From: an uncultured Gemmatimonadales bacterium
Lineage (GTDB): Bacteria; Gemmatimonadota; Gemmatimonadetes; Gemmatimonadales; GWC2-71-9
DNA length: 64,000 bases
Assembly: GCA_963792265.1 (NCBI GenBank)
Contig: CAWBVP010000002.1
Location: 101,331-165,330, forward strand
Direction: 5' to 3'
Numbering within the stretch: the stretch's first letter is position 1; each line of letters starts with the position of its first letter. Positions 457 through 51,502 of this stretch are shown here, piece after piece. The notes beneath the pieces are model-generated. The model did no database searches. It was given only the letters and a program-made list of their open reading frames with translations, and was not told the DNA's origin. The position numbers and the translations under genes were made by a program.

Positions 457-585
457 TCCTTCCGGGGGCTCACGTGTCGCCGCTTCAATCCCACCGCACA
501 CCTTCGTCGGATCGCAAAACCGCTCTTCAGCTCGCATCCGATAGCGCTTCCCGTCCCCAAGAACCTCGTCAGCCAGCCCATTCGA

Positions 586-1853
586 TTGGTGTCTGTCCCG
601 ATTGCGCCGGTCCTCTCGTGCGCTCCTCGGCTTGCGTCAGCTGCGCTCAGTGTGGCTGGGGACAATGCGGGTGAAGGAGGCGGGGCGGGGCTGGGCGGAG
701 CGGGGCGGACGGGCAGCAACAGCAACCGAGAAGCGGAGCTCAACTGGACTTACTGCCCCGCCGCCCATCCGCCCAGAGGGCACCCGCCCGCTGCCCGCCT
801 ACCCCTCCTCGACCAGCGCAGCCGGGGCACCAAGTTCATCGAGCTATCGGTAAACTCGGTGCTCAACACTCCAGCCTCCACCGGCATGGGGTTCTGGTCC
901 ATCAATCCGTATGTCGGTTGTGAGTTCGGCTGCACCTACTGCTATGCGCGGGATACTCATCGGTGGGCAATGGAGCGGCGGGGCAGCGGGGAGCGGGGCA
1001 GCGGGCGGTAACAGCACACCGGATGCTTTCGAGCAGCGGAGCGATCTGCCCCGCCGCCACCGCCGTTCCGCTGCCCGCCTGGGAGGCATTCGAGAAAGAA
1101 ATCCTGGTGAAGACCGAAGTCGCCGCAGTGCTCGCGCGCACGCTCAATCCCGCCCGGATAGCCGGTCACTCCCTGGTCATCGGCACCGCTACCGATCCCT
1201 ATCAGCCGGCTGAGCGGCGGTTCCAGCTCACCCGCCGGATTCTGGAGGTACTGCGCTCCTATCACGGGCTCTCGATCAGCATCATCACCAAGTCACCCCT
1301 CATCACCCGCGATCTCGACCTGCTGCAGGCGCTATCGAAACACAATGAGGTGAGCGTCAACATCTCACTGGCCACGGCGGACTCCCGGCTCGCCCGCCGG
1401 TTGGAGCTTCGCTCACCGGTTCCGGGAGCACGGCTCCGGGCTCTCCGCCGGCTCAGCCAGAGCGGCATTTACGCGGGGCTCCTGATCGCGCCGATCGTCC
1501 CTGGCATCACTGATGATTGGGCCGGGTTGGCCCGGCTGATGGAGGCGGCCAAGGAGGCGGGTGCCCGCTACGTGGTCGGGTCGGCGCTCCGGCTCGGCCC
1601 CGCAGCGCGGCACCGCTTCCTTCCCCACCTCGAGCGGGAGTTTCCCGAGCTGGCCGAGCGGTATCGACGGCACTATGCCGGCAAGGACCATGTCAGCCAG
1701 AGTTACCAGGACGCTCTCAGCCGGCGGCTGCGCGCGTTGCAGCAGGCGTACGGCTTTGCGGTTGATGAAGGCATGCGAAGGCGGCGTCAGCTCGAGGGTC
1801 GTATGCCCCGGAGAGAGACCGCCGGCCTTGCTGCACAAAAGGAGCTGCTATGA
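586..1853 (+). CDS. radical SAM protein, SplB/COG1533-like (DNA repair photolyase family)
   Basis: Radical SAM cluster NPYVGCEFGCTYCYARD, with the downstream body in ORF 963-1853. The frame breaks inside the 976-1079 insert. The true start is uncertain because conserved sequence begins near 810. Confidence 0.75.
676..800. repeat. degenerate copy of the G-rich/C-rich palindromic element
   Basis: G-tract left arm (676-716), core GCAGCAACAGCAACC, and a C-rich right arm ending CCGCTGCCCGCCT (753-800). It is open in the rSAM frame. Confidence 0.5.
976..1079. repeat. palindromic octamer-repeat element inside the rSAM gene
   Basis: Left arm of CGGGGCAG-type units, core AACAGCACACC, and a complementary right arm CTGCCCCG...CCGCTGCCCGCC. 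It is homologous to 9127-9232. Confidence 0.75.
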
Positions 1854-2215: not shown

Positions 2216-3394
2216 ATGCGTTCCGTATTGTTCGTCGATCCACCCGCTTTCTGTACTACCCTCGAGGGTCTGGCGCTGCCTGCGCTCCAGACCCGGCCCG
2301 TGGGGGTCGCTCCGCCCGGTGTCGATCGAGCCACGATTCTGGCGCTGTCCGCCGAGGCCAGGCGGGCCGGCCTGAGTCCAGGAATGTCGGTGCGGAAGGC
2401 TCAGCGGCTCTGTCCCGATCTTATTCTTCTGCCCCCCAACCCTCAGCTGTATGCTCGCGCTTCCCAGGCACTTCTCGAGATCCTGCGCTGCTTCGCTCCT
2501 ACCATCGAGCCCCGGGGATACGGTCATGCATTCCTCGATCTCACCGGAACCGGCCGGCTCTTCGGTTCGCCTCAGGACGTCGCTGCCTGTATCCGGCGGG
2601 AGGTGAGCGAGCGGCTGGGTCTTCCTCTCTCGGTTGGGATCGCCGCGAACAAGCTGGTGAGTGAGGCAGCGATTAAGGCGGGAAGGCGGGAAGGGGAACA
2701 GGAGCTGCTCTATGTCCCAGCAGGGGATGAGCGAGGTTTTCTCGCTCCCCATCCCCTCGAGGTGCTGCCCGAGCTCGATCCCCGTCTGCGCCAAAGGCTG
2801 GACGATTATCAGCTCGATCTCATCGGTGAGGTGGCGGCTATTCCCGAGAACGCGCTCTGCGCTGTTTTCGGCCGGCACGGCCGAGTGCTCCGGGCCCGGG
2901 CGCGAGGGATCGATTCCCGGCCGGTTTTGTCCCCCGAACGGCAATCCGAGTTTCACCAGGTTCATACGCTGACCACCGACACCAATGACGTCGGCGTACT
3001 GCACCCCCTGTTTCGGCTGATGAGCGAGCGACTGGGGCGGCGGCTGCGCCGGCGCGGGCTCACCGCCGGACGACTGCGGCTGCAGGCGATCTATGTCGAT
3101 TACACCGCCACCTCGCGCACCGTTCCCCTGAGTGCCGCCGTTCTCGATGCGGAGCTCTGGGGTGCCGCCCGGCGCGCCTTTGCGCTGGCCAACAGCAAAC
3201 GGTTGGCCGTGCGGACTGTCGCCCTCACCCTGGACCAGTTGTGGGAGGCTGAGGCGCAGCTGGACCTGTGGGCGGGCGAGCGAGACGGACCGGCGGACCG
3301 GCCAACTCCAGCATGCCCTCGACCAGATTCACCGCCGGTGGGGAATGCGGAGCGTCGGGCGGGGGATGGCCCACCTCTCGCTGCGCCAGGCTAA
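2216..3394 (+). CDS. imuB: Y-family DNA polymerase homolog, ImuB-like (catalytic residues lost)
   Basis: DinB-like fold (LPLSVGIAANKLVSEAA). The N-terminal DMD motif is replaced by VDPP, and SIDE is replaced by GYGH (EPRGYGHAFLDL). The C-terminus shifts frame near 3290, giving LQHALDQIHRRWG in ORF 3132-3476. Confidence 0.65.
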   Translation: MRSVLFVDPPAFCTTLEGLALPALQTRPVGVAPPGVDRATILALSAEARRAGLSPGMSVRKAQRLCPDLILLPPNPQLYARASQALLEILRCFAPTIEPRGYGHAFLDLTGTGRLFGSPQDVAACIRREVSERLGLPLSVGIAANKLVSEAAIKAGRREGEQELLYVPAGDERGFLAPHPLEVLPELDPRLRQRLDDYQLDLIGEVAAIPENALCAVFGRHGRVLRARARGIDSRPVLSPERQSEFHQVHTLTTDTNDVGVLHPLFRLMSERLGRRLRRRGLTAGRLRLQAIYVDYTATSRTVPLSAAVLDAELWGAARRAFALANSKRLAVRTVALTLDQLWEAEAQLDLWAGERDGPADRPTPACPRPDSPPVGNAERRAGDGPPLAAPG

Positions 3395-6495: not shown

Positions 6496-9400
6496 ATGTT
6501 CACCCACCTCCACGTCCACTCCCATTTCTCCTTCGGTCTCGGGGTCTCCAGTCCCGAGGCGCTCGCGGACGCCGCGGCGCAGCGGGGCTTCCGGGCGCTG
6601 GCCTGCACCGACACCAACGGGGTCTACGGCGCGGTCGAGTTCCAGCGCGCCTGTGCCGCCGCGGGCGTGCGCCCCATCCTCGGCGCGCACCTCGTCGCGA
6701 ACGGCCAGGAGACGGTAGCGCTCGCCACCAACGAGCAGGGTTGGGCAGCGCTGTGCCGTGCCATTACTCGTATTCATTGGGAGAGTAGCGGAGCCCGGAC
6801 GCGTGCCTGAGGGCGCGCAAGGGGTGGAAAGGGGTGTCAGGCGCGACCCGACGAGTATGCCGTCCGCGCTGACATCCTTGGCCACTGATCGTGACGGCCT
6901 CATCCTTATATCTCGCGACATCGTATTCCTGGAAGAGACGCTGCGGCTCAGTGGCCCTGCAAACCTCTACGCCGAGCTGCGGCCCGGGAGAGCGCGCCAC
7001 GCGGTGCTGGCCGCCGCCCGGCGACTCCGCCTTCCCGTCGTCGCCACCAACGGCGTGGTGGCCGCGCGAGCCGAGGAATGGAGCCGCCACCGGCTGCTGC
7101 GCGCCATCGCCCTGAATACCACCCTTTCATCCCTGCCGGCAGAAGAGGTCTGGCCTCCCCAGGCGTGGCTCTGCTCCGGCGACGAGCTGGCCCGCCACTT
7201 TCCCGACTGCCCCGAGGCCATTCGGGCAGCGGAGGAGATCGCTGAACAGTGCAGCTACACCATCCCGGTGGGCCGGCGCACGGTGCCGCCTCGGGTTGCC
7301 GATACCGATTCCGCTTTTGCGCAGCTCCGGGAGATGACACTGCAAGGCGCCCGCTGGCGTTATCCGGTTGTCACCCCAGAGCTGCAGGAGCGGTTGGAGC
7401 TGGAGCTCGGGATCATCGCGCGGAAGGGATTTGCCGACTACTTCCTCGTGGTGCGTGACATCGTCCGCAATGGCCCCACCCACTGCGGCCGGGGGTCAGT
7501 CGCCAATTCGGTGGTGAGTTACTGCCTCGGCATCACCCACGTCGATCCCATTCGCTCCCAGCTCGTGTTCGAGCGCTTTCTCAACCTGGAGCGCAGCGAT
7601 CCGCCCGACATCGATCTCGATTTCCCCTGGGATGAGCGCGACAAAGTGCTGGAGTACGTCTTCCGCCAGTATCCCCGGCTTCATTCCGCCATGGTGGCCA
7701 ACCATAACTGCTTTCAGCCCCGAGGCGCCTTGCGCGAGGTGGCCAAAGTGCACGGCAGGCCGGCCGGCGAGATCCGGGAGGTGACCCGGCGGATTCCCTT
7801 CTTCGAGGATGGCGAGCGGCAGCTCCCCGACCTGATAGCGACTCACCCCAACTTTCAGGGCCTGAGTCTGGCCAATACCTGGCAGGAGTTTGCCCGCCTG
7901 GCCGTGGGTCTGGTCGGGATCCCCACGGCACTTGTCGGTCCATGCCGGCGGAGTCGTGATCACTCCCACCCCGCTCACCGACTATGTGCCGGTGGAGCGG
8001 GCGGCCAAGACCCTCGAGTGCAATCCCGATCTCGCGGTTCCGGTCATCCAATTCGAAAAAGATGGTACCGAAGACGCTGGCCTGGTGAAGATCGATCTCC
8101 TCGGCAATCGCTCGCTGGCGGTGATCCGCGATGCCATCGAGGCGGTCCACGGCCATACCAACTACCGGATCGACTATACCTCGTCTACCGCCGGCGACGA
8201 CGAAGCGGCCAAGGAGCTGTTCCGCACCGGCAAGACCATGGGCGTCTTCTACACCGAATCCCCCGCATCCCGGCTCCTTTGCGCCAAGAGCCGGGCGGAC
8301 ACATTCGAGCTGCTGGTGCTGAACACCAGCATGATCCGTCCCGCCTCGAACAAGTACATCCAGCTTTATCTAGAGCGGTTGCGCAACGGCGCCCCCTATG
8401 AGCCGCTCGATCCGTGTCTCCGCGACACGCTGGAGGAGTCGTTCGGGATCATGGTGTATCAGGAGGACGTGGTGAATGTCTGCGCTACCTTCGCCGGGCA
8501 TGTCGCCCGCCACCGGCGACGGACTCCGCAAGGCGCTCTCCAAGAAGCGGCCCGCCAAGCACCTCGGCGCCTACGCCGAAGAGTTCTTCACCGGAGCCAT
8601 GCGGCTGGGCCGCGATCCGGACGCGGCCAAGCGAGTGTGGGAGATGATCATGTCCTTCGCGGGATACAGCTTCTGCAAGGGACACTCGTGCTCCTACATC
8701 CAGGTGGCCCAGCACGCGTGCGCGCTGCGAGCCCATCACCCGGCGGAGTTCATGGCCGCGGTGCTGTCCAACGGCGGTGGATTCTACCAGCCGTTTGCCT
8801 ATGTGGCCGAGGCCATGCGCATGGGGCTCAGGGTGCTTCCGCCCGACATCAATGCCAGCGATTTCCGCTGCAGCGGGAAGGGACGGGAGATTCGGATCGG
8901 GCTGCAGTATATCAAGGGGCTCTCGGCCGATGGGTAGAGCGGGTGATGACTGCGCGGGTCGTCCTTGCGGAGCGAGGCGGAAGCCGGACCGATTTCAGCA
9001 GCATCTTTGACCTCCGCGCGCGCACCGGAATCGCTCCCGTCCGACCTGCGTCTCCTGATCAAGGTCGGCGCGCTCGATTCGATCGCCCAGGGCTGGACCC
9101 GGCCGATGATGCTGTGGATGGTGGATCGGCGGGGCAGCGGGGCAGCGGGGCCGCGGGCAGCAACAGCACACCAACGCGAGGTCGTCATTCGGAGTCGACC
9201 GCCCCGCTGCCCCGCTGCCCCGCTGCCCCGCTGACTGGTTCGACGACCTTCCGCCCGCCGTCCCGGCTCTCAAGGAATACTCCCCCGAGCGCCGCCGCCG
9301 GGAGGAATACGAGGCCCTCGGGTTCATCAGCGACGCGCACCCGATGCTGCTCCACGCCGACCGGCTGCGACATTTTCGGCTGTGTCCCAGCACCGAGCTG

Positions 9401-9686
9401 CACCAGCACATCGGGCCGCCACGTGCTGGCTGCCGGGATGCTCACCACGGCCAAGCCGGTGCATACCAAGGCAGATGAGCCGATGGAATTTGTGACCTTC
9501 GATGATGGACACGGGTTAATCGAGGCGGTGCTGTTTCCGAAGGTCTATCGTGAGCGGGGTCACGTTCTGTTCGACCAGGGGCCCTTCATCTTCCGAGGCA
9601 AGGTAGAGGAGGAGTTCGGGGCGGTGACGCTCACACTGACCCACCTGGACCGGCTGGAGCGGGCCCGGGTCAGAGCTATCGCAGTG
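6496..9686 (+). CDS. dnaE2: error-prone DNA polymerase III alpha homolog (DnaE2/ImuC)
   Basis: PHP start MFTHLHVHSHFSFG, then GRGSVANSVVSYCLGITHVDP, PDIDLDF, VKIDLLGNRSLAVI, GYSFCKGHSCSYIQVA and an OB-fold tail. Pieces lie in at least 6 frames (6496-6810, 6758-, 7890-, 8476-8937, 8965-9234, 9233-). The stop is approximate. Confidence 0.8.
9127..9232. repeat. palindromic octamer-repeat element inside dnaE2
   Basis: A (CGGGGCAG)n left arm, core AACAGCACACC, and a (CCCCGCTG)n right arm. The arms pair perfectly over at least 20 bp. Confidence 0.8.
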
Positions 9687-10157
9687 AGCCGGCCGAGCGC
9701 TCGAAGACCATGTCGCCTTCCTGGGCAAAGCGGACCTTGCGGGTGCCGATTGGCGTGCGGAACGTGGCCCGGCCCCGGACCGCGAAGTTGTGGGTACCGG
9801 AGCCGAAGAGCCTGGAGATGCTCGGGCGTGGCGTGCTCCTCCAACGCCAAGGCCAGCGCCACCGTCGACACCGTGTCGGTCGCCACCTGCACGGTGCTGT
9901 CGCGCTTGAGACTGCCGATGGGAACCCCATCCAGACGAAGCGACAGCTCGACCTGCTCGGTGGAGAGCGGATAGTCGTTGGAGTTTTTCACCGCGAGGGC
10001 AATGATGACTGGAGTTGCTGACTGGCTGGATGCCTCCAGATTGAGCCGTGATCCCCGCGACCGTGACCACCGGGTCCTCGTACAGCCAGAGGCCGACCGG
10101 AGTACAGGCAGTTACCCAGCACAACCACGCCGCTCGACGCCATCCCGTGACTGCCAT
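9676..10157 (-). CDS. LEA_2/NDR1-HIN1-like lipoprotein
   Basis: Lipobox WLCWVTAC, then WLYEDPVVTVAGI, ALAVKNSNDYPL and FAVRGRATFRTPIG. It is spread over 3 frames. Confidence 0.5.
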
Positions 10158-10187: not shown

Positions 10188-11364
10188 ATGCGTCTTTCCC
10201 CCATGCTGGCAGGACTCGGACTCTCGCTCAATCTGGTCCTGGGCGCCAGCGCCTGCAGCTCTCAGACCGGGCCGACCCTGCCGCAAGGGAGCGGCGCCCG
10301 GCTGCAGCAGGTGGTCGCCGGCCTGACCTTTCCGCTTTATCTGACGGCTCCGCCGGGGGACCTGAACCGGCTCTTCATTGTCGAGAAGGCCGGCAGCATT
10401 CGCATCGTCAAAGCCGGCACTCTCCTGCCCACCGCGTTCCTCGACATCAGCCCACAGGTATCCAACGTGCGGCGAACAAGGATTGCTCGGCCTGGCCTTC
10501 GATCCCAATTACGCCGCCAATGGACGTTTCTTCGTCCACTACTCCGACCCCCTTGGCAATACCCGGGTTTCCAGCTTCCAGGTTTCAGCGGACCCCGACA
10601 TTGCCAACCCGGGCAGCGAACAGATCATCCTGACCGCCACTCAGCCCTACGCCAACCACAACGGGGGACAGCTGCTGTTCGGCCCGGATGGGATGCTCTA
10701 CCTCGGCCTGGGCGACGGCGGGTCGGGCCGGCGATCCCCAGGGCCGGGGCCAGGATCGCTCCGACCTGCTCGGCTCCATCCTGCGCGTGGACGTGCAAGC
10801 CGGCTCTTCCTACACCGTGCCGGCGGACAATCCGTTCGTCGGGCAGGCCGGCGTTCGACCGGAGATCTGGAGCTACGGGCTGCGCAATCCCTGGCGCTTC
10901 AGCTTCGACCGGGGTAACGGGAGATCTGTACATCGCCGACGTGGGCGAGTCCCGGTTCGAGGAAGTCGACGTCGTCTCCTGCGGCGGAAGGAGCCGGCAA
11001 AGGCTTGAACTACGGCTGGAACCTGATGGAAGGGAAGCATTGCTTCATCACCAGCCCGTGCAACGAGACCGGACTCACCCTGCCGGTGCACGAGTACACC
11101 CATGGCCAGGGCTGCTCCATCACCGGCGGCTACGTCTATCGCGGCGCTGCCGTTCCAGCGCTTCAAGGCCTCTACTTCTTTGCCGACTTTTGCCAGGGGT
11201 GGGTTCGCAGCTTTCGCCTGGCGGGCGGGGCCGCCACCGAGCTGACCGACTGGCGGGTGCTCCAACCCGGTGGCTCGATCACCAGCTTCGGGGAAGATGC
11301 CGCCGGCGAGCTCTACCTGATGTCCACCAACGGCGGGGTCTTCAAGATCGTGCCGGAGCCGTGA
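10188..11364 (+). CDS. PQQ-dependent sugar (sorbosone/glucose) dehydrogenase, beta-propeller
   Basis: Lipoprotein signal, [48 protein letters not shown] and NYGWNLMEG. There are at least 4 frameshifts. Confidence 0.75.
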
Positions 11365-11370
11365 GCTCGT

Positions 11371-12300
11371 ATGGCAGGGATCAAGGCTGAGCCGTACAGC
11401 CTCGCAGATTTCGAGCGGCTCCGGGATCGCATCCCTCCGTTGATCCGCTTCGGGACCTCGACCTGGAATTATCCTGGCTGGCGTGGCTTGGTGTACCACC
11501 AGGACTATGGTCCCAAGGGGGCGGCGGCGAAGATGCTGAAGGAGTACGCCGCCTTTCCGCTCTTCGGTACCGTGGGGGTCGATTCCAGCTTCTACGGCCC
11601 TCCGACCGAAGCGGTGCTTCGAAGCTATGCCGAGCAGCTCCCGCCGGGCTTCCCCTGCGTGAGCAAGGTGTGGAGTCAGCTCACGGTGCACACCTTTACC
11701 AAGGCCCAGGATCCGGACCGCGCCGGTAAGGTCAACCCGGATTTCCTCAATCCGGATCTGTTCATCGAGGAGATTTACCAGCCGTACCAACGCCACTTCA
11801 GCGCGAACACCGGCCCCTTCGTCTTCGAGTTCCAGACCATCGCCAAGTCCAGCGGCATCGGTCCCCAGCGCTTTGCCGACCGGCTGGACGAGTTCTTATC
11901 TGCGCTGCCCCGCGAAGGGCAGTATGCCGTCGAGATCCGGAACGATGAGTTTCTCACTCCCATGTACTTCGCGGTGCTGCGAGAGCACGGCGTGGGCCAC
12001 GTCTTCAACTCGTGGACCCGGATGCCTCCCATCGGTCATCAGCTCGATCTGCCCGGGTCGATTCCGGCATCATTCATCGTGGCCCGTGCGTTATTGCGGC
12101 CGGGACGCACCTACAATGAGGCGGTGGACGCCTTCGCCCCCTACGACCGGATTCGGGAGCCGAACCCAAAGCTGCGGCGGGATCTGGTTCGGCTGGTGCA
12201 GGCAGCGGTAAATCAGCGGATTCCGGCCTATCTACTGGTCAATAACCGCACGGAGGGCAGCGCGCCGCTGACGATCGCGGCGATCGCCGAAATGCTTTGA
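11371..12300 (+). CDS. DUF72 (UPF0759) family protein
   Basis: Intact 309-aa ORF. FGTSTWNYPGW and VEIRNDEF are typical of DUF72. Confidence 0.8.
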   Translation: MAGIKAEPYSLADFERLRDRIPPLIRFGTSTWNYPGWRGLVYHQDYGPKGAAAKMLKEYAAFPLFGTVGVDSSFYGPPTEAVLRSYAEQLPPGFPCVSKVWSQLTVHTFTKAQDPDRAGKVNPDFLNPDLFIEEIYQPYQRHFSANTGPFVFEFQTIAKSSGIGPQRFADRLDEFLSALPREGQYAVEIRNDEFLTPMYFAVLREHGVGHVFNSWTRMPPIGHQLDLPGSIPASFIVARALLRPGRTYNEAVDAFAPYDRIREPNPKLRRDLVRLVQAAVNQRIPAYLLVNNRTEGSAPLTIAAIAEML

Positions 12301-13184
12301 TCAGTCGTCCTTGTCCGGCAGCCACAGGCTGACGCGACCACTTGCGCTCCTCGCCCGGCTGCAGGGTCTGCGCCGTATGCCAGTCCCGAACCGCGATGTC
12401 GAGGCGATCCGGGCGCTCCGATGCAGGGCTCCAGCGCGAGATTGTAGTAGGGAGGGCGGCCCGGCGGTGCCCAGCCCCGGCAGTTGATCCAGACCCCCAC
12501 CTGGGGGACCTGGTCGGGTGAGACCCCATCTCCAAACGCTCTCCCCGTCGGGGGTCGGTCAGAACCATCCGCCCCTCGCCGGCCAAAATCGCCGAAGAGC
12601 TTCACCGCCCAGCCCCCGCTCTCCGGAAAAGTGAATCGCCCGGCATCTCCTCCGATGGCGCCGGGCCAGCTCACTACATCGTTCTCGCTTAGGTCATCGC
12701 GCCCGTGCACCGCGGCGATCTTCACCTGGGTGACACCCGGAAGCTCCAGCACCGACCCTGGCTGAACGTTGAGCAGCGGGTGGGCCGACCAGATCCAGGG
12801 GAACGGCGTCGCGCCGGTGTGGCGGAGCGCATAGCTGCAGTCGCACGACCGGCTCGTCCGGGTCGAGGGTGACCGTGCGCTGAAACTCGTAGGGGAATAC
12901 GGTACCTTGCGCCGAGCCCGCGAGGGTGGTTCCCGTCTGCAGTCTCGTAGACCGAGCTGTCCCAGGGAGCGCTCCACAACTCGCCATGGTCCGGAAGCAG
13001 TGGTGTCCCCGGCGGCGCTCCGGGAATCGGGACACGCCCCCACGGTAGGAAAGCACTCGTCCCAGCCCCCGCTGTCCGCGGTCTCCACGTATGAGGCCCC
13101 CGGTTTGGGCGGCGCCAGCGGGATCTGGTCGCTGCGCCAGAGCCACTCCCGCCCGTTGAGCCGCCGCAGGTTGGTGAGCTTCAT
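12301..13184 (-). CDS. galactose-mutarotase-like (aldose epimerase superfamily) protein
   Basis: MKLTNLRRLNGREWLW, GGWDECFPTVG and YYNLALEPCIGAP. There are several frame changes. The reconstructed end ...SLWLPDKDD stops at 12301. Confidence 0.4.
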
Positions 13185-13254
13185 CCCGATGGCCGGGACC
13201 GCCACGATTTCAACCTGAGTCGAGCGAAGGGCGACTGCTGGAAAGCCGGAGACG

Positions 13255-13948
13255 TTAGTCTGACGGTAAGGACATGCCCAAAAGCTCGCACCGGCCAGGT
13301 GCCGAAGCCGGCGACTTTGGCCGGCACCGCAAAGAAGCGGAAATCCTGCTGAGGAAGGCTGGCGAGATTGCACATGTGCTCGACGATCGGCACCTCGGCG
13401 CCGAGCAGGGTCGAATGGACCGGGCGGGTCGAGATCCTCGGTGTCGTCGATGTTGAGGGAATCGATGCCGACCAGCGTGACGCCCTGACTCACCAGATAT
13501 TCCGCCGCATCGCCGCTGAGAAACGGATGCCCTGAGAGGTAGCGCTCGGTGCGCCAGTGCGCGTCCCACCCGGTCTGCACCAGCACCGCCTTGCCCCGGA
13601 CCTCCACGTCTTCGAATGCCGACCGGCCGATCGGGCGCCCGGCGCCCGGCGGGATCCGCACCACTACCGCATCGAGATCTGCCAACGATTCCAGCGGAAG
13701 TTGAGCCAGGTCCTTGCCATCGGCATACCGATGGAACGGCGAGTCGATGTAAGTGCCGGTGTTGGCCACCATCTCGATCTTGCCGATCTGGAACTCCACC
13801 CCTGGCGCATACCGGCTCCGGGAGGCCTCCCGACTCAGGTAGTCGCAGATGATCGGGCCGGGAAGACCGGGATACGTGGTCATCCCGTGCTCGACGGTAT
13901 GGCTGAGGTCGACTAAAGCGGCCCGCTGCCCGCCTGCCCCGCTGCCCC
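13255..13948 (-). CDS. cyclase family protein (kynurenine formamidase-like)
   Basis: VDLSHTVEHGMTTYPG, GTYIDSPFH and LVGIDSLNID. The N-terminus is formed by a half palindromic element, and the C-terminal frame is uncertain. Confidence 0.6.
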
Positions 13949-13956
13949 GCCTACCC
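13918..13956. repeat. single arm of the octamer-repeat element
   Basis: The minus strand reads GGGTAGGCGGGGCAGCGGGGCAGGCGGGCAGCGGGCC. It spans the ispH stop and the cyclase 5' end. Confidence 0.55.
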
Positions 13957-15159
13957 AAGCGCCGCCTCCAGATCCACCCCGGCGACGGCACAGATCCGCG
14001 CGATGGTCTCACCCATCTTGTTGTTCGGGGTCGACGCCCCGGCGGTGATCCCGATGACGCTTGAAGACCCCAGCCATCCCTCGGTCACTGACCTCCGATT
14101 TGGTGCCGATCGGCTGGTGCCGGATTGCGCCGGTGGTCGACATCCACCGCTTCGGCATCCTCGATGTGGTAGGCGAGCCACCCCGTGCTGCCGGACCAGC
14201 GCAGCCAGGTGGCAGGTATTGCTGGAGTTGTATCCGCCTACCACGACCATCAGGTCGAGCGGCTCCTGCAGCAATGCGAGCACCGCGTCCTGCCGCTCCT
14301 GGGTTGCGGAGCAGATGGTGTCGAAGGAACGAAAGTGCTGGTCAATGGATTCGGCCCGTACCGCCGGACCATGCTCTTCCGCACCTCCTCAGCGATGGCC
14401 AGCGATTCGCCGGAGAGCATGGTGGTCTGGTTGGCCAGTCCTACCCGGGTCAGGTCCCGCTCGAAATCGAAGCCGGGTGACACCGCCTTGCCGAACCGGG
14501 CTTCCAGCGGAGCGAAGGTCTCCGCCCCGCTCGATGAAGTCGCAGATCATCCGAGCTTCGGTCATGTCGAGCACCACCAGATAGCGGCCGCCCGGATACT
14601 TCATGACCTGGCTGGCCGTGGCCTTGGTCTCTTCGTGGTAATGCTTGCCATGGATGATGGCGGTGAAGCCGTCCCTGGCGTAACTCTCGACCCGCTTCCA
14701 GACGTTCAGCACCGAGCCGCAGGTGGTGTCCACCAGCACGCAGCCGATAGCCCGGAGCCGCTCGAAGTCCCCTATGGTCACCCCAAAGGCCGGCATGATG
14801 ACCACGTCGTCCGGCGTCACCGCGGAAAAGTCGAACTCACCACCATCGCGGTGGTCCAGGAGGGTGATCCCCATGTTGCGGAGCTTCTCGTTGACGTGGG
14901 GATTGTGAATGATCTCGCCCACCAGGAAGAGCCGGCGGCCGGGAAACTTGGTCCGGGTCTCATAGGCGTATTCGACGGCCCGATCCACCCCGTAGCAGAA
15001 GCCGAATTCGCGGGCCAGGCGGAAGGTCAGCCGCCCTACCTGTAGCCGATAATCGTTGGCCTTGAGCGACTCGACGATGCCGCTGTGGTAGTCGGCGCTG
15101 AGCCGGCCGGCGATCTCGCTCTTGAGGCCGAAACCCTTACGGAAGTAGGTGTTCTCCAT
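13951..15159 (-). CDS. ispH: 4-hydroxy-3-methylbut-2-enyl diphosphate reductase
   Basis: FGFCYGVDRAV, VGEIIHNPHV, CGSVLNVW, GLANQTTML, VVGGYNSSNT and GASTPN. At least 3 frameshifts (14389-15159, 14250-14483, 13951-14283). Confidence 0.85.
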
Positions 15160-16205: not shown

Positions 16206-16295
16206 AGTTCAAAGATACGGGTACAGGGGCCGTCTGGTTTCCTGACTATCTAGACGCTCAGGACCCGGCATGGTGCACAATGCGCCGTTGCGCCT

Positions 16296-17219
16296 TTACT
16301 CTCCCACCGGTTCTACCGGGATCTCCCGATGCTGCCGAAGCTCGGCCAGAATCACCAAGCCCAGGCCGGTGAAAATGGCCAGTCCGGCAACCACCGCCCG
16401 GGTGGTCAGCCGCTCACCCTGGAGCACCAGTGGCGCCACCGCCGCCGCAATGAGCGGCTGGAGGTAGATGTAGACTGTTACCAGGTTGGAGGACACTCGT
16501 TGCAGCGCCCAGATGTTGAGCAGGTAGCTCACGATGGTGGGGAAGATCACGATGTAGCCCACCCAGAGCCACACGGGACCGCTGATGGTCGACAGCTGCA
16601 AGCTCCGCATGGCGATCACCCCGAAAGGCAGGACACCGAACGAGGCGAACAACATCACATAGAAGCTCACCGTGATCGGCTGGTACCGGCCAACCACCGA
16701 TCGCGCGTAGAGGAAGTAGGCGGCATAGCAGACCATGCCCAGCACGATGAGGGCGTTCCCCAGCGCCACGTCGGGAGCGAGTGAGATGCGATCGGGACCG
16801 ATCAGGTAAATCGTGCCCAGAGCAGCCAGGCCAATGCCGGCGAACTTGAGCGCCGAAGGCGGCTCCCTCCGGGTGAGCACCCCGCCAAGGACCGTAAAAA
16901 CCGGGACGGTAGTCACCAGAATGGTGGCGTTGATGGCGGTGGTGTGCCGTAACCCATAGAGGAAGAGGGTCTGGTTGGCAGCGATGCCGAGCAGACCAAG
17001 TACGGCCAACCGGAGCAGGTCGCCCCGGTCCCGCACCCACTGACCTCCGGTTGCCGCATTGACGAGAAAGAGGACTGCGGTGGCTCCCAGCACCCGAAAG
17101 CAGACCAGGGCACCAGCAGGGAAATGCGGAAGCACAAACCGGCCGGCGATAGCCAGGCTGGCAAAGAGAAGCTGGACCACCACGAGGGCAAGGTGGACCA
17201 GCGGCTTGGCCGGGGACAT
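16296..17219 (-). CDS. DMT-superfamily (EamA) transporter
   Basis: Intact 307 aa with 10 predicted TM segments and duplicated EamA-like halves. Confidence 0.85.
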   Translation of the reverse strand: MSPAKPLVHLALVVVQLLFASLAIAGRFVLPHFPAGALVCFRVLGATAVLFLVNAATGGQWVRDRGDLLRLAVLGLLGIAANQTLFLYGLRHTTAINATILVTTVPVFTVLGGVLTRREPPSALKFAGIGLAALGTIYLIGPDRISLAPDVALGNALIVLGMVCYAAYFLYARSVVGRYQPITVSFYVMLFASFGVLPFGVIAMRSLQLSTISGPVWLWVGYIVIFPTIVSYLLNIWALQRVSSNLVTVYIYLQPLIAAAVAPLVLQGERLTTRAVVAGLAIFTGLGLVILAELRQHREIPVEPVGE

Positions 17220-17240
17220 CCGGTCGGGTCGAGGCCCTAG

Positions 17241-19861
17241 CTACCGACGCGGGCGCCCCCGAGGTCCGCCGCCTCGCCGGGCCCGATGGCCCTGCCGCTG
17301 ACGCCGCCGTCCGCCGCGGTGGCGGCCAGGATCAGAGTCCTCGTCAGCGTGGGTCCGGGGAGACCGCCGCAACATTTCTTGCAGCGCAGGGATGGTATCC
17401 GCCAGGATCGGCGGATGGCGCCCCCGCTGTACCGCAAAACGGAGGGGCCGATCCAGCCGCGGCAGCTCGTCCGCCCGTAGCCGCTTGGCCTGGCCCTCCC
17501 GCAGCCGGACCCGGGCGACGCCCTCTCCGTTCTGGATCTCGTAGTCGAGCGGCACCGCGTCGCCCCGGACATGCAGGCTCCCGGGCAACGCCTGCAGCCG
17601 CTCCCGGTCTTCGACGCCCACCAGCTCCGCCGGGTCGAGCACGATCCGGGTGCGGAGGAACTCATCCCAGCTGCTGACGCCTTCGAGCTGGCGTCGGATC
17701 AGGGCGCGCAATGCGCTCCGGCGCCAGCTCTTTCAGGGTGCCGCCCGACCGGCGCCAGAGCTCATCCAGCTCCGCCAGGGTCCGGCGCAGCCGGTTCTGA
17801 TCGGGATGGATGGTCTCTCCCCTGATGAGCGCCTCGGTGAGCGCATCACGAGCTGCCGGCAGCAGCTCGGCGGGGATCTTTCCCTCGATCGGCTCGATCT
17901 CGGTGTCCAGCTCGAACCCGAAGTAGCTGCGCCGGCGCTCGACCATCAGGGCCTGATGCTTTCGGGGCCCGCCCAAGACGATCCTGAGGTGACCCCAGCG
18001 TGGCATACTTCCGCACCAAATCGTACGACAGAGTGGTTCCCTCGATTGCGGCGCGGGGGACCCCGAAACGATCAGCGAAGTAGCGCAGCGTCCCGGCCAC
18101 CGCACCCCAGCTTCCCGCCACCGAGGTCTTGGAGACTCTCGCCTCCTGACCATCGGCGGTGTGCTCGTCGATCACCAGGTCGAACGGCATGAAGCGGGCG
18201 AGCAGATCGGCCCAGTCCCGCCGCACATCCTTCGAGGCGTAGGGCAGCTGCTTGGGCAAGGGCAGCTCGAGCGACCGGTAGACTGACGCCAAGCCCAGGG
18301 CAGTGTCCTCGATCGCCTTCACCAGGACCCCACGACGCTCGGCCCACTCGGCGAGACCATCCTCGAATAGATGGCGGGGCAAGCCATACACCTCGCCCAG
18401 GTAGCCGTGCTGGTTGACCGCCTCGGCATAGAGATTGTAAGCCGTGAGGTGGTCACTGCCGTTGACGATCACCCCATGGAGGTCGCGCTCCTCCCGGGTC
18501 ATCCGATGGAGCGACTCGATGTTGGAGGAGACGGCAACCATCGGAATCAGCTCTTCGCCCGCATGGACCAGCAGCTCGCCCCAGGGCCGTTCTACCGGAA
18601 GCGCCTCGACCTCTCGTCCATAGCTGGTCAACTTCCCGTTCTCGATCAGGCCTCGGCTGGTGAGCAGTGTGATCGCCCGATTGTAAGCGGTGCGATCGAG
18701 CGGCACCGGAAGGTCCAGATCCCTGGCGTCGACCCCCAGTGCAGCACAGGTGATGGCAACCCGTTCGGCGTCACCCGCCAACTGGAACTCAGGCGGGGTG
18801 GGCCGAAGCGATTCGAACACGAGGTTTCGGTCACTCAGAATGACCACCTCGCCATTGGGCACCCGGCCGTGGACCCGGCCGGCCATCTGGAGAATCTCGT
18901 TGGCACCGAGATACAGCCGGTGCAGCACGTTGCGGCCGCGGTCGACCACATTGCCGTAGCGGGCGTCGTAGATCACAACGGTATTGAGACCTCGAACGTT
19001 GAGCGCCGACTGGCCGGCCGCGGTCATCGCCAACAGGAAGGGACGCTCGACCTCGCCCTCCAGAAAGGGGCGAATCACTCTGATCGGCTCCCCCCGTGAT
19101 AAAACGCCGTCGTGAGCCGGGGCCACTGGGATCCGAGACCCTCGGCCAGCTTTTCGACTTCGGCGCGGGTGGGAACGAAGACCGCGACCCCCCGCTTCTC
19201 CTTCATTAGATGGCGGATATAGCGGTCGTTCAGGAATTCGTCAGGCTGCTGGGGGAGCACCTGCACTTTGGCCTTCAGGGCGGGATCGAAGGCCTGGGTC
19301 ACCAGCACTTCCTTAGCTGTTCAGGTATTGAGCGTAGAACGTCGGATCCACTGTGGCGCTCAGCCAGATGAAGCGGCAGCCCGCCCGCTTGCCCAGCGCA
19401 AGGCAGAGCTCCAGCTCGGCCGAGGTCTGGTGGATCTCGTCGACCACGATGGTGTCCCGTCCGGTGATCAGGTCATCCTGAAACCAGCGACGAGCTATAC
19501 CGGTGGTCACGATCACCACATTCCAGTTGGGAGTTTCCGGGGTGGCCTCCCGCTCGCGATTGACCACTCCGGCGTAGAGCGGCTCCCGCAGAATGGACTC
19601 GGCGATGGATCGGATACCCAGTGTTTTACCGGTGCCGGTTCCCGCCACGATGCCGAAGGCAATTCCCGCTCCGGCCCACTGGCGCAGCTCCTCGCCGTGC
19701 TCCCGCTCGAGCAGGGTATCTACCTGGAGACTGAGAGCCAGCTCGATCGTCTCGCACGCCGCCCGGGTGGGAGCGATGACGATAATCCGGCCCTTGGGAT
19801 GGGGAGCGAGGCGATAGGCGTTGGGATCGGGCGGGAGATGGTGGTCGCGGGAAGGATGCAT
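17241..19861 (-). CDS. DEAH-box (HrpA/HrpB-like) helicase-related protein
   Basis: Walker A GTGTGKT, the DEIH box, and MTAAGQSALNVRG..QMAGRVHG. Pieces are 19313-19861, 19075-19308, 17846-19126, 17662-18153 and 17241-17711. Confidence 0.75.
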
Positions 19862-19872
19862 GCGTAAAGGAA

Positions 19873-19985
19873 GGCGGTAGGGCGGTAGGGCGGTAGGGCG
19901 GCAATTCAGGAACGGCGAATGCAGGGGAACTCACCGCTCTTATTACCAGAACTCTACCGCCTTACCGCCCTACCGCCTTACCGCC
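19873..19985. repeat. intergenic palindromic element with GGCGGTAG octamer arms
   Basis: (GGCGGTAG)x3.5 at 19873-19901 and the complementary (YTACCGCC)x4 at 19954-19985, with a 52-nt AT-richer centre. Confidence 0.75.
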
Positions 19986-19987
19986 TT

Positions 19988-23086: not shown

Positions 23087-23572
23087 ACAGCCTCCTGGGC
23101 GACAATGCCTCCGTCGATCGGCTCTTGCGGTGAGCCGCAGCACATGCTGAGAACCCCGAAGCTCACCGACTGTCAGCTTGGTAAGTCGCGCTTCGCAACG
23201 ACGGCGAACCGAAGCGCAATCTGCTCCGCTCGCCCAGTGCGAAGCCTGTGCCAGTAAGCTAAGACGTTGTAGTGCGGAGAAAAACAGACCGATCGGTCAG
23301 ATGTCCGGCGGCGGTGGCCAGCTTGTCCGGCCTGGCGCGGCGCGTCCGATGCACAGCGGCTGTTGCTGGATGGAACGGGCTGCATCGGACGGTCTGATCT
23401 TGATGATCCAGCCATTCACAGACCACTGCAAACGCGGTGTCCGATCCAGACCGAACGCACTCATCAAATACGGCACCGCGCCGTACATGTTGGTCCGACC
23501 TCGGCTTTGAGCCTTCGAAGGAAGCGGAAGAATACAGGCTGCACTGATCGGGGTCGAGCTGCCATAGACCCG

Positions 23573-23601
23573 AATATATACCGAAGACACCGAGCGATCA
23601 A
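23573..23601 (-). promoter_or_regulatory. sigma70-like promoter TTGATC-N17-TATATT (second copy of the 401-432 module)
   Basis: The minus strand reads CTTGATCgctcggtgtCTTCGGTATATATTCGGG. The 18-mer at 23569-23586 matches 415-432 at 17 of 18 positions. Confidence 0.45.
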
Positions 23602-23668
23602 GATCGAGCTTGTCACTCGGATGCGGCAAAACAACGCGAAACAAGCTGATAGGAACAGTTGCTTCGAC

Positions 23669-23698
23669 TTGACACCGCTTCATAGCGGGTTCCATACT
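23669..23698 (+). promoter_or_regulatory. candidate fae promoter TTGACA-N18-CATACT
   Basis: A consensus -35 lies 205 nt upstream of the fae ATG, followed by the perfect 14-bp palindrome CTCAGCGCGCTGAG at 23724-23737. Confidence 0.4.
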
Positions 23699-23878
23699 AG
23701 GGTCCTCAACGTCCGGCAAAGTACTCAGCGCGCTGAGCTACCCGCCTTGCGGGACCGCGTGGCCGGGTTGTCCGTTTTCCACGCTGCTCCTGATCCGAGC
23801 TCACCCTTCGCCAACGTCGAGCTGACCATGTGGCGCGAGATTCTTTCCTTCTTCAACAAAACGGATACGGAGGCAGCT

Positions 23879-24385
23879 ATGGCCGGGGAATTCTACATCG
23901 GTGAATCGCTGGTCGGAGAAGGCAACGAAATTGCCCACATCGACCTGATCATCGGCTCGAAGAGTGGCCCAGCGGGCGCCGCGTTCGTGAATGCGCTCGC
24001 CACCAACACCGACGGCTTCAATCACCTGCTGGCCGTCGTCACGCCGAATCTGCCGGCCAAGCCCGACACCGTGCTCTTCAACAAGGTCACGATCAAGGGC
24101 GCCAAGCAGGCGGTGCAGATGTTCGGCCCGGCGCAGGCGGCAGTGGCCCGCGCGGTCGTGGACAGCGTGGCCAGCGGGGTGATCGACAAGGGCAAGGCCA
24201 ACGATCTCTGCATCCTGGTCGGGGTGTTCATCCACTGGCAGGCCGAGAACGACAAGAAGATCTACGACTACAACTATCAGGCCACCAAGGAGTCGATCCA
24301 GCGGGCGCTGCAGGGCAAGCCGACGGTGGATGAGGTGCTGCAGCGGTACAAGGCGCGCGCGGCATCCGTTTGCCAGCGGCGCTGA
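23879..24385 (+). CDS. fae: formaldehyde-activating enzyme
   Basis: [26 protein letters not shown]...VTPNLPAKP...FIHWQA matches Fae. A GGAGG RBS precedes the ATG. Confidence 0.95.
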
Positions 24386-24484
24386 GGGCTGATCGTACAG
24401 TCCCGCTATCCGAGATTTCCACGAGGGGCGGCCCGCTGACGGGGTGCGCCCCTCGTCTTTTAGACACCATCGGAGCATTCACCG

Positions 24485-25409: not shown

Positions 25410-25412
25410 GCG

Positions 25413-30534: not shown

Positions 30535-30558
30535 TGGCCCGACCGGCGTCGCCGTGAT

Positions 30559-41776: not shown

Positions 41777-41886
41777 GTGTTATGCCCCCGAGCGATCCCC
41801 CTAAGCGTTGAGTTTGTGGAAGTTAGGGTACCTCGCGGCCGCTAGAAATCGCCCCGGGATCACGCGTTTCGCCACCCATGCCGCCA

Positions 41887-42631: not shown

Positions 42632-42664
42632 GCCCGCTCCCTTGTAAGATGCTAAGGCGCTGAT

Positions 42665-43468: not shown

Positions 43469-43571
43469 GAGCGGGCTATGAGCTATTGGCTGCTGCGGTT
43501 GCCGACTAGCTCCCAGCACTCAGAGCTGATAGCCAGATCGACCAATGGCCCATAGCGAACAAGGAGGAACG

Positions 43572-43935
43572 ATGCCGGCAACCAAAGAGACGAACCTACA
43601 ACGAAACCGAAATCAACGAGCGGCTCAAGGAGCTGTCCGGCTGGTATTACGAGGACGGCTGGATCCGGCGGGTGTACAAGACCGATGGCTGGCCCACCAC
43701 GCTGATGCTGGTCAACGCGGTCGGCTTCCTGGCAGAAGCGGCCTACCATCATCCGGACCTGACCGTTACCTGGGGCCGGCTCACCGTGAAGCTCCAGAAT
43801 CATGCGGCCGGCGGAATCACCGACAAGGATTTCGAGCTGGCCCGGAAGATCGAGGAGGTCGTTCTTTGGCGTCCCCAGGGTGGGGCGCTCGAGGGCACGC
43901 CCAACAAGTGGGTGCGACCGGGGGATCCGAGATAG
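43572..43935 (+). CDS. pterin-4a-carbinolamine dehydratase
   Basis: EINERLKELSGW and EAAYHHPDLTVTWGRLTVKL. AAGGAGG RBS. There is a frameshift just after the ATG. Confidence 0.8.
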
Positions 43936-51487: not shown

Positions 51488-51502
51488 GCGGTAACCCGGC
51501 AG

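Follow-up and report, generated by a model that had tools for sequence, protein, structure and literature searches.

The window, by which we mean the whole 64,000-nucleotide stretch of the Gemmatimonadales contig analysed here, carries a radical-SAM gene together with imuB and dnaE2, and these genes contain copies or remnants of a repeat with arms of tandem octamers. The features are compiled in Table 1. The radical-SAM protein contains the CxxxCxxC motif and is 74–87% identical to its orthologs (n = 120). It scores 219–234 bits against the NCBIfam model NF038135 (cut-off 430) and 212–215 bits against NF033668 (cut-off 360), and by sequence it appears to be a relative of the Rv2578c/PA0069 family and not an equivalog.

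Table 1 Features of the radical-SAM locus and copies of the octamer-arm element in the window
Feature	Coordinates	Strand	Evidence
Small Cys-rich (zinc-ribbon-like) ORF	474..674	+	Stop overlaps radical-SAM start; kept upstream in L001 and L002
Host gene, radical-SAM protein, Rv2578c/PA0069 (COG1533 "SplB-like") group	665..1853	+	Pfam PF04055; orthologs; N terminus
Copy A, N-terminal coding region of the radical-SAM gene, right behind the start codon	679..805	+	nhmmer 687–802, E = 2e-9
Copy B, decayed flavour-1 palindromic element	976..1079	+	Sequence; nhmmer; alignment to five orthologous copies; folds
34-nt remnant at imuB site, behind AQLDLW	3272..3305	+	Comparison with L079, L083, L100
Copy C, well-preserved flavour-1 element in dnaE2, behind MMLWMVD	9126..9234	+	nhmmer E = 1e-24; tblastn frames
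Copy D, half element (one octamer arm), N-terminal extension of cyclase-family gene (12228–14012, −)	13921..13956	−	
Copy E, related palindrome, octamer GGCGGTAG	19862..19987	.	Inverted repeat and fold

Copy B occupies the loop 3′ of the CxxxCxxC motif, and the reading frame of the host gene switches within it. The layout described for this block in the original prediction can be read directly in the sequence: CGGGGCAG-type octamers at 976–1008, a core AACAGCACACC at 1010–1020 and a C-rich right arm at 1046–1079 that ends in CCGCTGCCCGCC, with the loop (1021–1045) between core and right arm. The window contains 12 matches to the octamer pattern, versus 0.27 expected. The resemblance to 9127–9232 is one of homology, as had been proposed: a family profile built from other loci finds both 971–1080 (nhmmer E = 4e-14) and 9122–9239 (E = 1e-24). 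The block had also been called a palindrome, which is true of the family it belongs to, but its own arms pair poorly. Its fold reaches a z score of −2.6 as RNA (3 of 200 shuffles equally good) and −2.1 as DNA (6 of 200), and the hairpins of orthologous and other copies range from −3 to −11. Copy B is a decayed copy. The G-quadruplex rule suggested for the arms is satisfied at 980–1005 as a regular expression (four G3+ tracts with loops of 1–7 nt), but solely as a pattern match; copies A, C, and D match the expression in their arms as well. Hairpin formation competes with G-quadruplex folding, and an AT-rich relative of the element contains no G tracts.

As assembled, the host gene runs through three frames: it starts at ATG 665, its body continues to 1011, and it resumes in 963–1853. 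The break predicted at the block (586–1011 versus 963–1853) is seen in the list of open reading frames. Restoring one C was thought to repair the gene, and a C at 991/992 does open the frame and gives exactly the 35-residue insert that had been quoted; any one base within 960–1010, though, opens it too. Aligned to five in-frame orthologous copies, copy B has four gaps (1 + 1 + 1 + 4 = 7 nt), so that the lesion is not assignable to that C. Nor does one base regenerate a continuous gene, since the true start at ATG 665 (MRVKEAG..., as in the orthologs) lies in the third frame and copy A intervenes.

Copy A contains tandem repeats at 679–713 and a frame change; orthologs carry an element at this position too. 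At the imuB remnant, where the imuB frame changes, relatives have full elements. Copy C has an inverted repeat of 32 nt (94%) and a fold z score of −6.7, and copy D is partially matched by nhmmer at 13901–13954. Copy E, likewise with an inverted repeat of 32 nt (94%) and with fold z scores of −9.5 and −11.4, occupies the whole interval from the TAG stop of an Omp85-family gene to the ATG of the next minus-strand gene.

In the general layout of the family, 3–5 tandem octamers form the left arm, followed by a conserved box (GCAACAGCACACC), by a variable loop of 20–30 nt, and by the complementary right arm. In flavour 1, the G-rich arm octamers are GCGGGGCA with the complement TGCCCCGC; the core in the family profile, which also covers the arms, is CAGCAACAGCACACC. 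At least four such octamer "flavours" are found among the inserts at the radical-SAM site. Though the arms differ between loci, the core is common even to the AT-rich copy (CAACAACATAC). The anticipated further copies beyond the window were looked for with the exact core and the family profile, and they are present, dispersed in many unrelated genes and intergenic gaps. Across Gemmatimonadales loci, at least 20 distinct, unrelated sites are occupied, as counted in short loci (8–21 kb) seeded by one exact 18-mer rather than in whole genomes. Among 185,579 species genomes, the exact core is accompanied by octamer arms only in ∼19 Gemmatimonadales loci, the remaining matches being armless, and among metagenome loci in 15 of the 80 analysed (85 returned). 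Profile matches in loci from outside the Gemmatimonadales consist of the seeded core alone. Within the collections searched, the two-armed element hence appears to be confined to Gemmatimonadales MAGs and metagenome contigs.

A strict palindrome detector returned no match in 10 Markov shuffles, Rfam gave nothing but sub-threshold matches to generic miRNA hairpins, and a literature search on Gemmatimonadota repeats or MITEs and on palindromes in dnaE2 or imuB yielded no account of an octamer-arm family. This family is previously undescribed, yet intragenic palindromic repeats in repair genes, including dnaE2, are already documented. We consider it likely that copy B belongs, as a degenerate copy, to a non-autonomous palindromic repeat family of ∼100–140 bp that is specific to Gemmatimonadales and persists in genes by being read through.

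Copies in frame are found in genes for the radical-SAM protein (two sites), ImuB, DnaE2 (three sites), Tgt, a PfkB kinase, an AMP-binding enzyme, and a PabB-like (chorismate-binding) enzyme. In Tgt, PfkB, and the AMP-binding and chorismate-binding enzymes, Pfam domains flank the insert on both sides. Judged by gene calls and frame conservation, no fewer than seven unrelated proteins appear to contain a read-through copy. Strand and frame agree between the two flanks in ∼19 of the 40 copies that could be evaluated, versus 1/6 by chance; the flank frames were herein assigned by a codon log-odds caller of 91% accuracy. Frame calling by GC3 only (180-nt flanks) was discarded for its unreliable strand calls, and classification by the longest spanning ORF was confounded by open wrong frames in DNA of 65% GC, for example the wrong frame through copy C. 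The original prediction of insertion in phase and translation thus stands in part: a dispersed palindrome lies in phase within genes and seems to be read through in intact orthologs on other assemblies, including JGI metagenome contigs. It fails for the dnaE2 copy in the window, which as assembled is entered in one frame and meets a TGA at 9232–9234, with dnaE2 resuming in another frame.

Some copies exactly span the intergenic gap from stop to start. Flavour 2 (GGCGGTAG) would give TAG in every frame; coding copies have AAG or ACG instead, whereas the intergenic copy E consists of perfect TAG units. The core is read in three frames depending on the host site (GSNSTP, QQQHT, and AATAH), and its conservation must therefore act at the DNA level.

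The arms are stop-free in all six frames. As 8 and 3 have no common factor, each frame gives the same Gly/Ala/Arg-rich and then Pro-rich peptide. A copy with a length divisible by three would merely add a disordered surface loop, and in the radical-SAM protein it is placed in the naturally variable linker from the Fe-S cluster helix to the next strand. The AlphaFold2 model of one ortholog (P0021), which is of medium quality (mean pLDDT 64), has pLDDT values below 50 at residues 1–52 and 119–146, corresponding to the two element-encoded segments; the latter segment lies between the helices 105–118 and 152–158. The element-encoded segments are thus predicted to be disordered loops. An example of a predicted peptide that spans the junction of an insert is MERRGSGAAGQTGSNSTPEE. 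A protein-database search with an element-encoded peptide gave 22 weak matches, mostly to short hypothetical ORFs, and a sequence search of the PDB with an ortholog matched nothing.

The radical-SAM site was compared across relatives. In all 119 parseable sequences of the 120 closest orthologs, a hypervariable in-frame insert is present at the exact site of copy B, bounded by DTHRW.MER and LP[PA][WE]EAFEKE, and the insert peptides are translated complementary octamer arms. A fresh insertion at this site, as originally envisaged, is contradicted by the presence of the element or a shortened palindrome in every close ortholog. As regards the ancestral state, distant relatives exhibit a short loop here and intermediate relatives a non-repeat linker of 20–25 residues. 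On the ortholog tree, the flavours require 52 Fitch changes over 119 tips, compared with a null mean of 62, and the short forms at the site are shorter palindromes. Turnover at the site would proceed by changes in octamer number and by replacement with other flavours; copies would shrink through loss of the hairpin centre, and selection would maintain frame and openness.

How the element came to its sites can be read in several ways. Dispersal suggests that it is or was mobile, and the likeliest route would be a single-strand transposase that recognises structure, or else ectopic gene conversion following breakage of the hairpin; once dispersed through the genome, the family would persist in genes because it can be read through. 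The loci examined revealed no transposase, no target-site duplication, and no cleanly empty site. At 10 sites, the junctions have no consistent direct repeat that would represent a target-site duplication, the boundaries being blurred by the repeats and the "empty" sites being footprint-like. That something occupies the site in every ortholog also fits a very old resident element evolving in place. The palindromes might not derive from a transposable element at all and instead arise locally by template switching, octamer slippage, and repair of hairpin breaks with gene conversion, with no dedicated enzyme. This would accord with the missing target-site duplication and with the lack of any truly empty orthologous site, the "empty" ones being mini-palindromes such as GGGGCAG|CCC. 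Short forms retain the outer stem, the orientation of the centre varies among orthologs at site A—as recombination between inverted arms predicts—and flavours swap at a fixed site with weak phylogenetic signal, while the arms vary by locus around a shared core, even in the AT-rich copy. Gene conversion, however, cannot place the element at a site where it was absent, yet the same arms and core recur at no fewer than 20 unrelated sites, and near-identical arms and core at separate loci of one genome point to recent copying, so that we hold a purely local origin to be unlikely. Far more improbable still, to the point of being negligible, is that the block represents a native low-complexity linker specific to the lineage, its likeness to the dnaE2 block being a compositional coincidence. 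The linker is indeed variable already outside the close Gemmatimonadales group and the encoded peptide is of low complexity, but the profile match of E = 4e-14 takes in the non-repetitive core, orthologous copies have common loop motifs and align base for base, shuffles produce no such palindromes, and the element recurs in many unrelated genes and intergenic gaps. The profile match and the copies at many other sites refute the coincidence.

The frame breaks have to be considered separately. Besides the genes discussed, a GGDEF gene and the mtd gene in the contig switch frame, and, relative to an intact ortholog, dnaE2 carries ∼6 additional single bases. Because unrelated conserved genes on the contig are also frameshifted, the frame break in the window is likely, though unproven, to be an assembly indel. 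That an evenly high rate of assembly error alone produced the cluster of frameshifts was rejected, since several genes of 1.5–2.6 kb are intact and the rate is therefore uneven. Programmed frameshifting was rejected as well: orthologs need no shift, the breaks in the window differ in sign, and no slippery site precedes a downstream structure. The breaks would be genuine if the radical-SAM gene, imuB, and dnaE2 were decaying pseudogenes and the element merely the place where some lesions fell, a reading that we find rather less than probable. At least two breaks are located in the radical-SAM gene, one in imuB, and ∼6–7 in dnaE2; the interspersed adh, tag, and VOC genes are intact, as are long genes for an 878-residue PQQ dehydrogenase, a 679-residue prolyl oligopeptidase, and a 513-residue anthranilate synthase. 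Furthermore, the related MAG L001 has no imuB and a fragmented dnaE2, and four indels separate copy B from its orthologs. The frameshifts in the GGDEF domain and the mtd gene, in turn, indicate a contig that is generally indel-prone. Outside the repeats, the dnaE2 breaks are single extra bases beside short homopolymers and resemble consensus errors, and the fragments are 76–89% identical to the intact ortholog without in-frame stops. The octamer-arm elements are strongly concentrated in the neighbourhood of the SOS-type genes radical-SAM, imuB, and dnaE2: these make up ∼0.1% of the genome and hold about a third of the exact-core copies (∼11 of 35; 5 of ∼22 distinct sites), and in the window, L001, L002, L079, and L080, nearly all detected palindromes lie within them. 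The element may be largely neutral to its host, but this concentration is hard to reconcile with pure neutrality. One might regard the palindromes as control elements of a DNA-damage module, not as passengers: very stable hairpins (or G-quadruplex/i-motif structures) within the radical-SAM, imuB, and dnaE2 messages would throttle translation of mutagenic enzymes, or indels in octamer or G tracts would turn these genes on and off in the manner of a contingency locus. Apart from the concentration, this could draw on the very strong RNA hairpins (up to −80 to −90 kcal/mol), on the frame changes that coincide with every one of the four intragenic copies or remnants in the window, on COG1533 splB and imuA-imuB-dnaE2 being core LexA targets in other phyla (PMC4951493), and on the unexplained preference of intragenic REPs for repair genes, including dnaE2 (PMC3733652). 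Against it, members of the family also reside in ordinary intergenic gaps and in the genes for Tgt, PfkB, the AMP-binding enzyme, and the PabB-like enzyme; the frame breaks are of differing sign and consist of single bases instead of changes in octamer number; unrelated genes of the contig are frameshifted too; and stems are decayed in many copies, B included. The window shows no enrichment of G-quadruplex motifs (13 versus 10.1 expected from shuffles) and the AT-rich flavour has none, and copies at the same site in different genomes are non-independent events. We regard a control role as very doubtful. Slightly more speculative again is the notion of a structure-defined class, constrained only in its short core and octamer-periodic complementarity with the arms free, that specifically colonises SOS/translesion genes (splB-like radical SAM, imuB, and dnaE2) and gates their expression via hairpins or frame-toggling arm indels. 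If true, a major soil phylum would possess a built-in, heritable switch controlling mutagenic repair.

The palindromic read-through family favoured here can be set beside several known systems. Cyanobacterial short tandemly repeated heptamers (STRR) are tandem units of 7–8 nt linked to hairpin-forming dispersed repeats and are mainly intergenic; they are not known as in-frame gene inserts, nor in an arrangement of two complementary arrays flanking a conserved core. The analogue named in the original prediction, the Rickettsia palindromic element (RPE), is apt, being likewise dispersed, in phase, and read through. RPEs are outlined as palindromes of ∼100–150 bp in several subfamilies, a large share of which interrupt unrelated housekeeping genes without shifting the frame and are translated into additional peptide segments that the fold tolerates (Ogata et al. 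2000, 2002, summarised in PMC10969869). The octamer-arm element is also palindromic (104–140 bp), multicopy, and in frame and open in unrelated protein genes, but it resides in Gemmatimonadota, is GC-rich, has arms of tandem octamers that differ by subfamily around a short common core, and is concentrated in SOS-type genes. It would thus seem to work like an RPE; membership in the RPEs is not claimed, the likeness being one of length, copy number, and in-frame position. That nothing comparable exists in high-GC soil lineages cannot be maintained: intragenic GTAG/CGTC REPs, many of them in DNA-repair genes including dnaE2, occur in Opitutus, Thauera, Xanthomonas, and others (PMC3733652). These REPs and REP dimers encode 20–80 residues, and many lie in replication and repair genes, among them dnaE2 and a gene for a photoreactivating enzyme (Di Nocera et al. 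2013, PMC3733652). A REP unit is a stem-loop of 20–40 bp with a stem of 5–13 bp, a loop of 2–20 nt, and a terminal GTAG or CGTC tag (PMC3733652, Table 1). REP termini provide TAG stops to adjacent ORFs, as does copy E, and many copies lie between co-directionally transcribed genes. In contrast, a single octamer arm is not self-complementary, the stem of 24–40 bp pairs arm to arm across 40–60 nt, and the flavour-1 arms (GCGGGGCA/TGCCCCGC) have no GTAG or CGTC tag. GTAG does occur in units of flavour 2, and CGTC in the complement of flavour 3, which is a lead only. With MITEs, as reviewed in PMC10969869, the element shares the short length (<300 bp), the lack of a transposase ORF, terminal inverted repeats, multiple dispersed copies, and sometimes in-frame fusions; its inverted repeats, however, are tandem-repeat arrays that vary by locus, and no consistent target-site duplication was seen at the 10 sites compared.

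For genome annotation, the elements lead to frame errors in Gemmatimonadales MAGs and to gene calls that are spurious or split, and they inflate the apparent protein diversity at fixed sites. Distinctive of the family are the tandem-octamer arms, which make the reading frames equivalent and stop-free, and the heavy concentration in radical-SAM, imuB, and dnaE2 genes. This bias toward repair genes echoes the older observation on intragenic REPs, and the question becomes testable in a second system. More broadly, the family would extend a phenomenon of the Rickettsia type—selfish palindromes surviving by translation—to a soil phylum that is free-living, GC-rich, and for the most part uncultured, and it would offer many natural "insertion experiments" in conserved enzymes.

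Copy B, a palindromic block inside a radical-SAM gene, exhibits the layout of the original prediction, with its arms, core and C-rich end being read directly off the sequence. The window contains 12 matches to the octamer pattern, against an expectation of 0.27, and resembling blocks are found as copies A, C and D, while copy E is built on another octamer. When the window was Markov-shuffled 10 times, a generic detector returned no octamer-armed palindromes. Subtypes are herein termed flavours according to their arm octamer; copies B and C belong to flavour 1, and the GGCGGTAG type is flavour 2. The 18-nt core GGGCAGCAACAGCACACC was searched across 185,579 species, each represented by a single genome, returning 76 loci. 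Octamer arms on both sides are present only in ~19 of them, all from Gemmatimonadales MAGs; the remaining loci are bare chance matches. A family profile made from 16 armed copies matches copy B (E=4e-14), copy C (1e-24) and copy A (2e-9), and matched the seeded core alone in non-Gemmatimonadales loci. In metagenome contigs the same core was returned at 85 loci; 80 were analysed, and 15 of these contain armed elements, 22 in all. The element is a repeat family with a Gemmatimonadales host. Rfam contains no family corresponding to the octamer-armed palindrome, and literature searches found no account of it; the family is real and, as far as we could search literature and databases, undocumented.

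Positions of palindromic elements and associated features
Locus	Feature	Position	Detail
Window	Small Cys-rich ORF	474-674	CPDC...CVSCAQCGWGQCG
Window	ORFs overlapping at copy B	586-1011; 963-1853	frames differ
Window	Copy A, radical-SAM gene	679-805	
Window	Copy B, radical-SAM gene	976-1079	
Window	Copy B left arm, G-rich	976-1008	CGGGGCAG-type octamers; one unit CGGGGAG
Window	Copy B core	1010-1020	AACAGCACACC
Window	Copy B loop	1021-1045	
Window	Copy B right arm, C-rich	1046-1079	terminates in CCGCTGCCCGCC
Window	dnaE2	6499-9700	
Window	Inverted repeat in dnaE2	6790-6860	CGGACGCGTGCCTGA ... TCAGGCGCGACCCG
Window	Copy C, dnaE2	9126-9234	
Window	Copy D, cyclase-family gene	13921-13956	
Window	Copy E, intergenic	19862-19987	GGCGGTAG octamers
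Window	C1 genes and PQQ-dependent dehydrogenase	23363-31461; 41801-45355; 49216-51852	
Window	mtd-like gene, plus strand	24950-25300	frame switch near 25080
Window	GGDEF domain, minus strand	39380-39700	frame switch near 39540 (IGIAIYP / DGEDIDTLLMHADTAMYKAK)
L001	imuB and dnaE2 regions	11200-12640; 16212-18423	
L001	imuB-site palindrome	12434-12542	
L079	Palindromes	10006-10122; 10288-10401; 12942-13091; 18298-18403	units GGCGGGTA, GGCGGACG, GGCGGTAC
L080	AT-rich palindrome	8183-8280	CACGAAAA octamer arms; core-like CAACAACATAC

The host of copy B is related to Rv2578c/PA0069 and annotated as COG1533 "DNA repair photolyase". Of its 120 closest homologs (74-87% identity), 119 were parsable, and every one of these has an insert of ~7-50 residues at exactly the position of copy B, bounded by DTHRW.MER and LP[PA][WE]EAFEKE. 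The insert peptides sort into flavours, each translated from a different complementary octamer array: RGSGAAGQ...PRRPAAP from GCGGGGCA, AVGRKDGKAV...LPPYRPSALPP from GGCGGTAG, ADGRTGGR...DRPSARPPVRL from GCGGACGG and AERGNAGTRE...VPSFPRS from GCGGGAAC. For every flavour, the arms pair well in the DNA of several orthologous loci (z -3.4 to -8.1), and short inserts, for example MERAGCPPALPPW, are smaller palindromes with the centre lost. Since remoter representatives show a short basal loop (40-50% identity; YTHEYLGL..DFERRIFVK) or a non-repeat linker of 20-25 residues (50-65% identity), the site is an old variable linker that palindromes occupy in close Gemmatimonadales relatives. Flavours show little clustering on the tree of host proteins (52 Fitch changes over 119 tips; null mean 62, null minimum 53), and this site turns over fast. 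In the AF2 model of the ortholog P0021 (mean pLDDT 64), pLDDT drops below 50 exactly in the element-encoded residues 1-52 and 119-146, with helices 105-118 and 152-158 flanking the low-pLDDT element segment. Some distant family members (P0256, P0260, P0270 and P0275) contain an intein directly after CxxxCxxC; hence, mobile inserts of two very different types are found beside the cluster loop. The small Cys-rich ORF conserved just upstream overlaps the start of the radical-SAM gene and weakly matches the C-terminal zinc ribbon of B12-dependent ribonucleotide reductase.

Further flavour-1 copies lie in frame behind AQLDLW in ImuB, and DnaE2 has them at three sites, following CRAIT.IHW, preceding DFRARTG and following MMLW.VD. 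Pfam domains flank the copies in Tgt, a PfkB kinase, an AMP-binding (acetoacetyl-CoA-synthetase-like) enzyme and a PabB/TrpE-like enzyme; LptC-like and cyclase proteins have copies in their N-terminal extensions. Strand and frame, called by codon log-odds (91% correct on held-out genes), are the same on both flanks in about 19 of 40 evaluable copies. Stop-to-start gaps are filled exactly by copy E, by copies in L081, L094 and L145 and by one upstream of surE. Copy E is a near-perfect palindrome with a 33-bp stem, placed precisely between the stop of an Omp85-family gene, a TAG overlapping the palindrome's end, and the ATG of the next minus-strand gene (8 nt off). As the sequence itself shows, the arms are free of stops in every frame and, their period being 8, encode one cyclic peptide whichever of the three frames is read. 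Flavour 2 would put TAG in every frame; coding copies show AAG or ACG instead, and the intergenic copy E keeps its TAG units perfect. The core is translated as GSNSTP, QQQHT or AATAH, depending on the site. The stop-free arms, the replaced TAG and the three core readings argue that openness of the element is under selection, with conservation at the DNA level.

As assembled, the reading frame changes within copy B itself. An in-phase insert needing one restored C had been proposed; adding C after 991 does yield the quoted 35-residue insert, but this is one of three candidate single-base sites, and any single base added within 960-1010 opens the frame. Alignment to five in-frame orthologous copies opens four gaps in copy B (1+1+1+4 = 7 nt). 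The true start of the gene is ATG 665 (MRVKEAG...), overlapping the upstream ORF's stop as in L001 and L002, loci of close relatives whose source MAGs are labelled MFD. It lies in the third frame, with copy A between it and the gene body. The frame of imuB changes at a 34-nt remnant, and dnaE2 contains about six extra single bases relative to the intact ortholog in L002; it also breaks within copy C, which has an in-frame TGA at its end. The dnaE2 gene is split over all three frames into fragments 76-89% identical to that ortholog, relative to which single extra bases lie at about 7925, 8496, 9036 and 9416 and several small indels at 8932-8990. At its site after CRAIT.IHW, where locus L102 has a full element, an imperfect inverted repeat coincides with a frame change and may be an old decayed copy.

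Such breaks could reflect genuine decay of the radical-SAM/imuB/dnaE2 module in the window organism; in L001, imuB is lost and dnaE2 fragmented. However, the GGDEF domain and the methylene-H4MPT dehydrogenase-like (mtd) gene elsewhere in the window also switch frame, so frameshifts extend beyond repeat elements and repair genes, and an assembly indel is the likelier cause of the copy B break. Several long genes of the window are intact. Copy B is a decayed copy within an indel-prone contig. In L001 (MAG MFD09212.bin.1.3) the module may have decayed independently: this locus lacks imuB and the VOC gene yet retains the imuB-site palindrome, and its dnaE2 is split into three or more gene calls.

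The window also holds an H4MPT-linked C1 gene cluster (Fae, Mtd-like, FTR, 4-HFC-P synthase and pterin-binding proteins) and an 878-aa PQQ-dependent dehydrogenase, which suggests methylotrophy-type formaldehyde handling in the source Gemmatimonadales genome.

The element works like the Rickettsia palindromic element, as had been suggested; this likeness is one of behaviour. It also works like intragenic REPs, whose ends supply TAG stops (Di Nocera et al., PMC3733652), but lacks the 20-40 bp stem-loop unit that defines REPs, and flavour 1 lacks the REP tag GTAG/CGTC. It fits a loose description of MITEs, with target duplication and parent IS as the exceptions. The proposed G-quadruplex pattern is matched by regex, though without enrichment (13 versus 10.1).

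The analysis shows copies that are dispersed, built as hairpins and kept in frame, that shrink to mini-palindromes and that are replaced by other flavours where the site stays fixed. No target duplication, clean empty site or partner transposase was seen at the sites and in the 8-21 kb loci examined; the sole "empty" dnaE2 site, GGGGCAG/CCC, looks like a footprint. At site A (radical-SAM N terminus), the element centre is present in both orientations, as expected from recombination between inverted arms. Flavours share a short core, the AT-rich L080 copy included, which suggests that a single-strand-specific enzyme would recognise hairpin plus core. That L080 palindrome, residing where a tag (3-methyladenine glycosylase) gene is extended at its N terminus, indicates that arm sequence is almost free while architecture and core persist.

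Within the window, the gene order is Zn-ribbon ORF, radical SAM, VOC, imuB-like Y-family polymerase, (adh), tag and dnaE2, and it is syntenic in L002, L079 and L080. Core LexA targets in other phyla include COG1533 splB and imuA-imuB-dnaE2 (PMC4951493). Radical-SAM, imuB and dnaE2 hold about 11 of 35 exact-core copies (5 of ~22 distinct sites) and, in the 21-kb loci, nearly all palindromes detected. In L079, one such locus, all four copies, of three flavours, lie in these genes. Finding six separate sites within about 5.6 kb is striking, though the magnitude of the bias is uncertain since copies at orthologous sites are non-independent events. Di Nocera et al. described this bias, unexplained there too, for intragenic GTAG/CGTC REPs in uvrA, recB, polA, dnaE2 and a photoreactivating enzyme (PMC3733652). 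What makes the family interesting is its architecture together with the bias to SOS genes.
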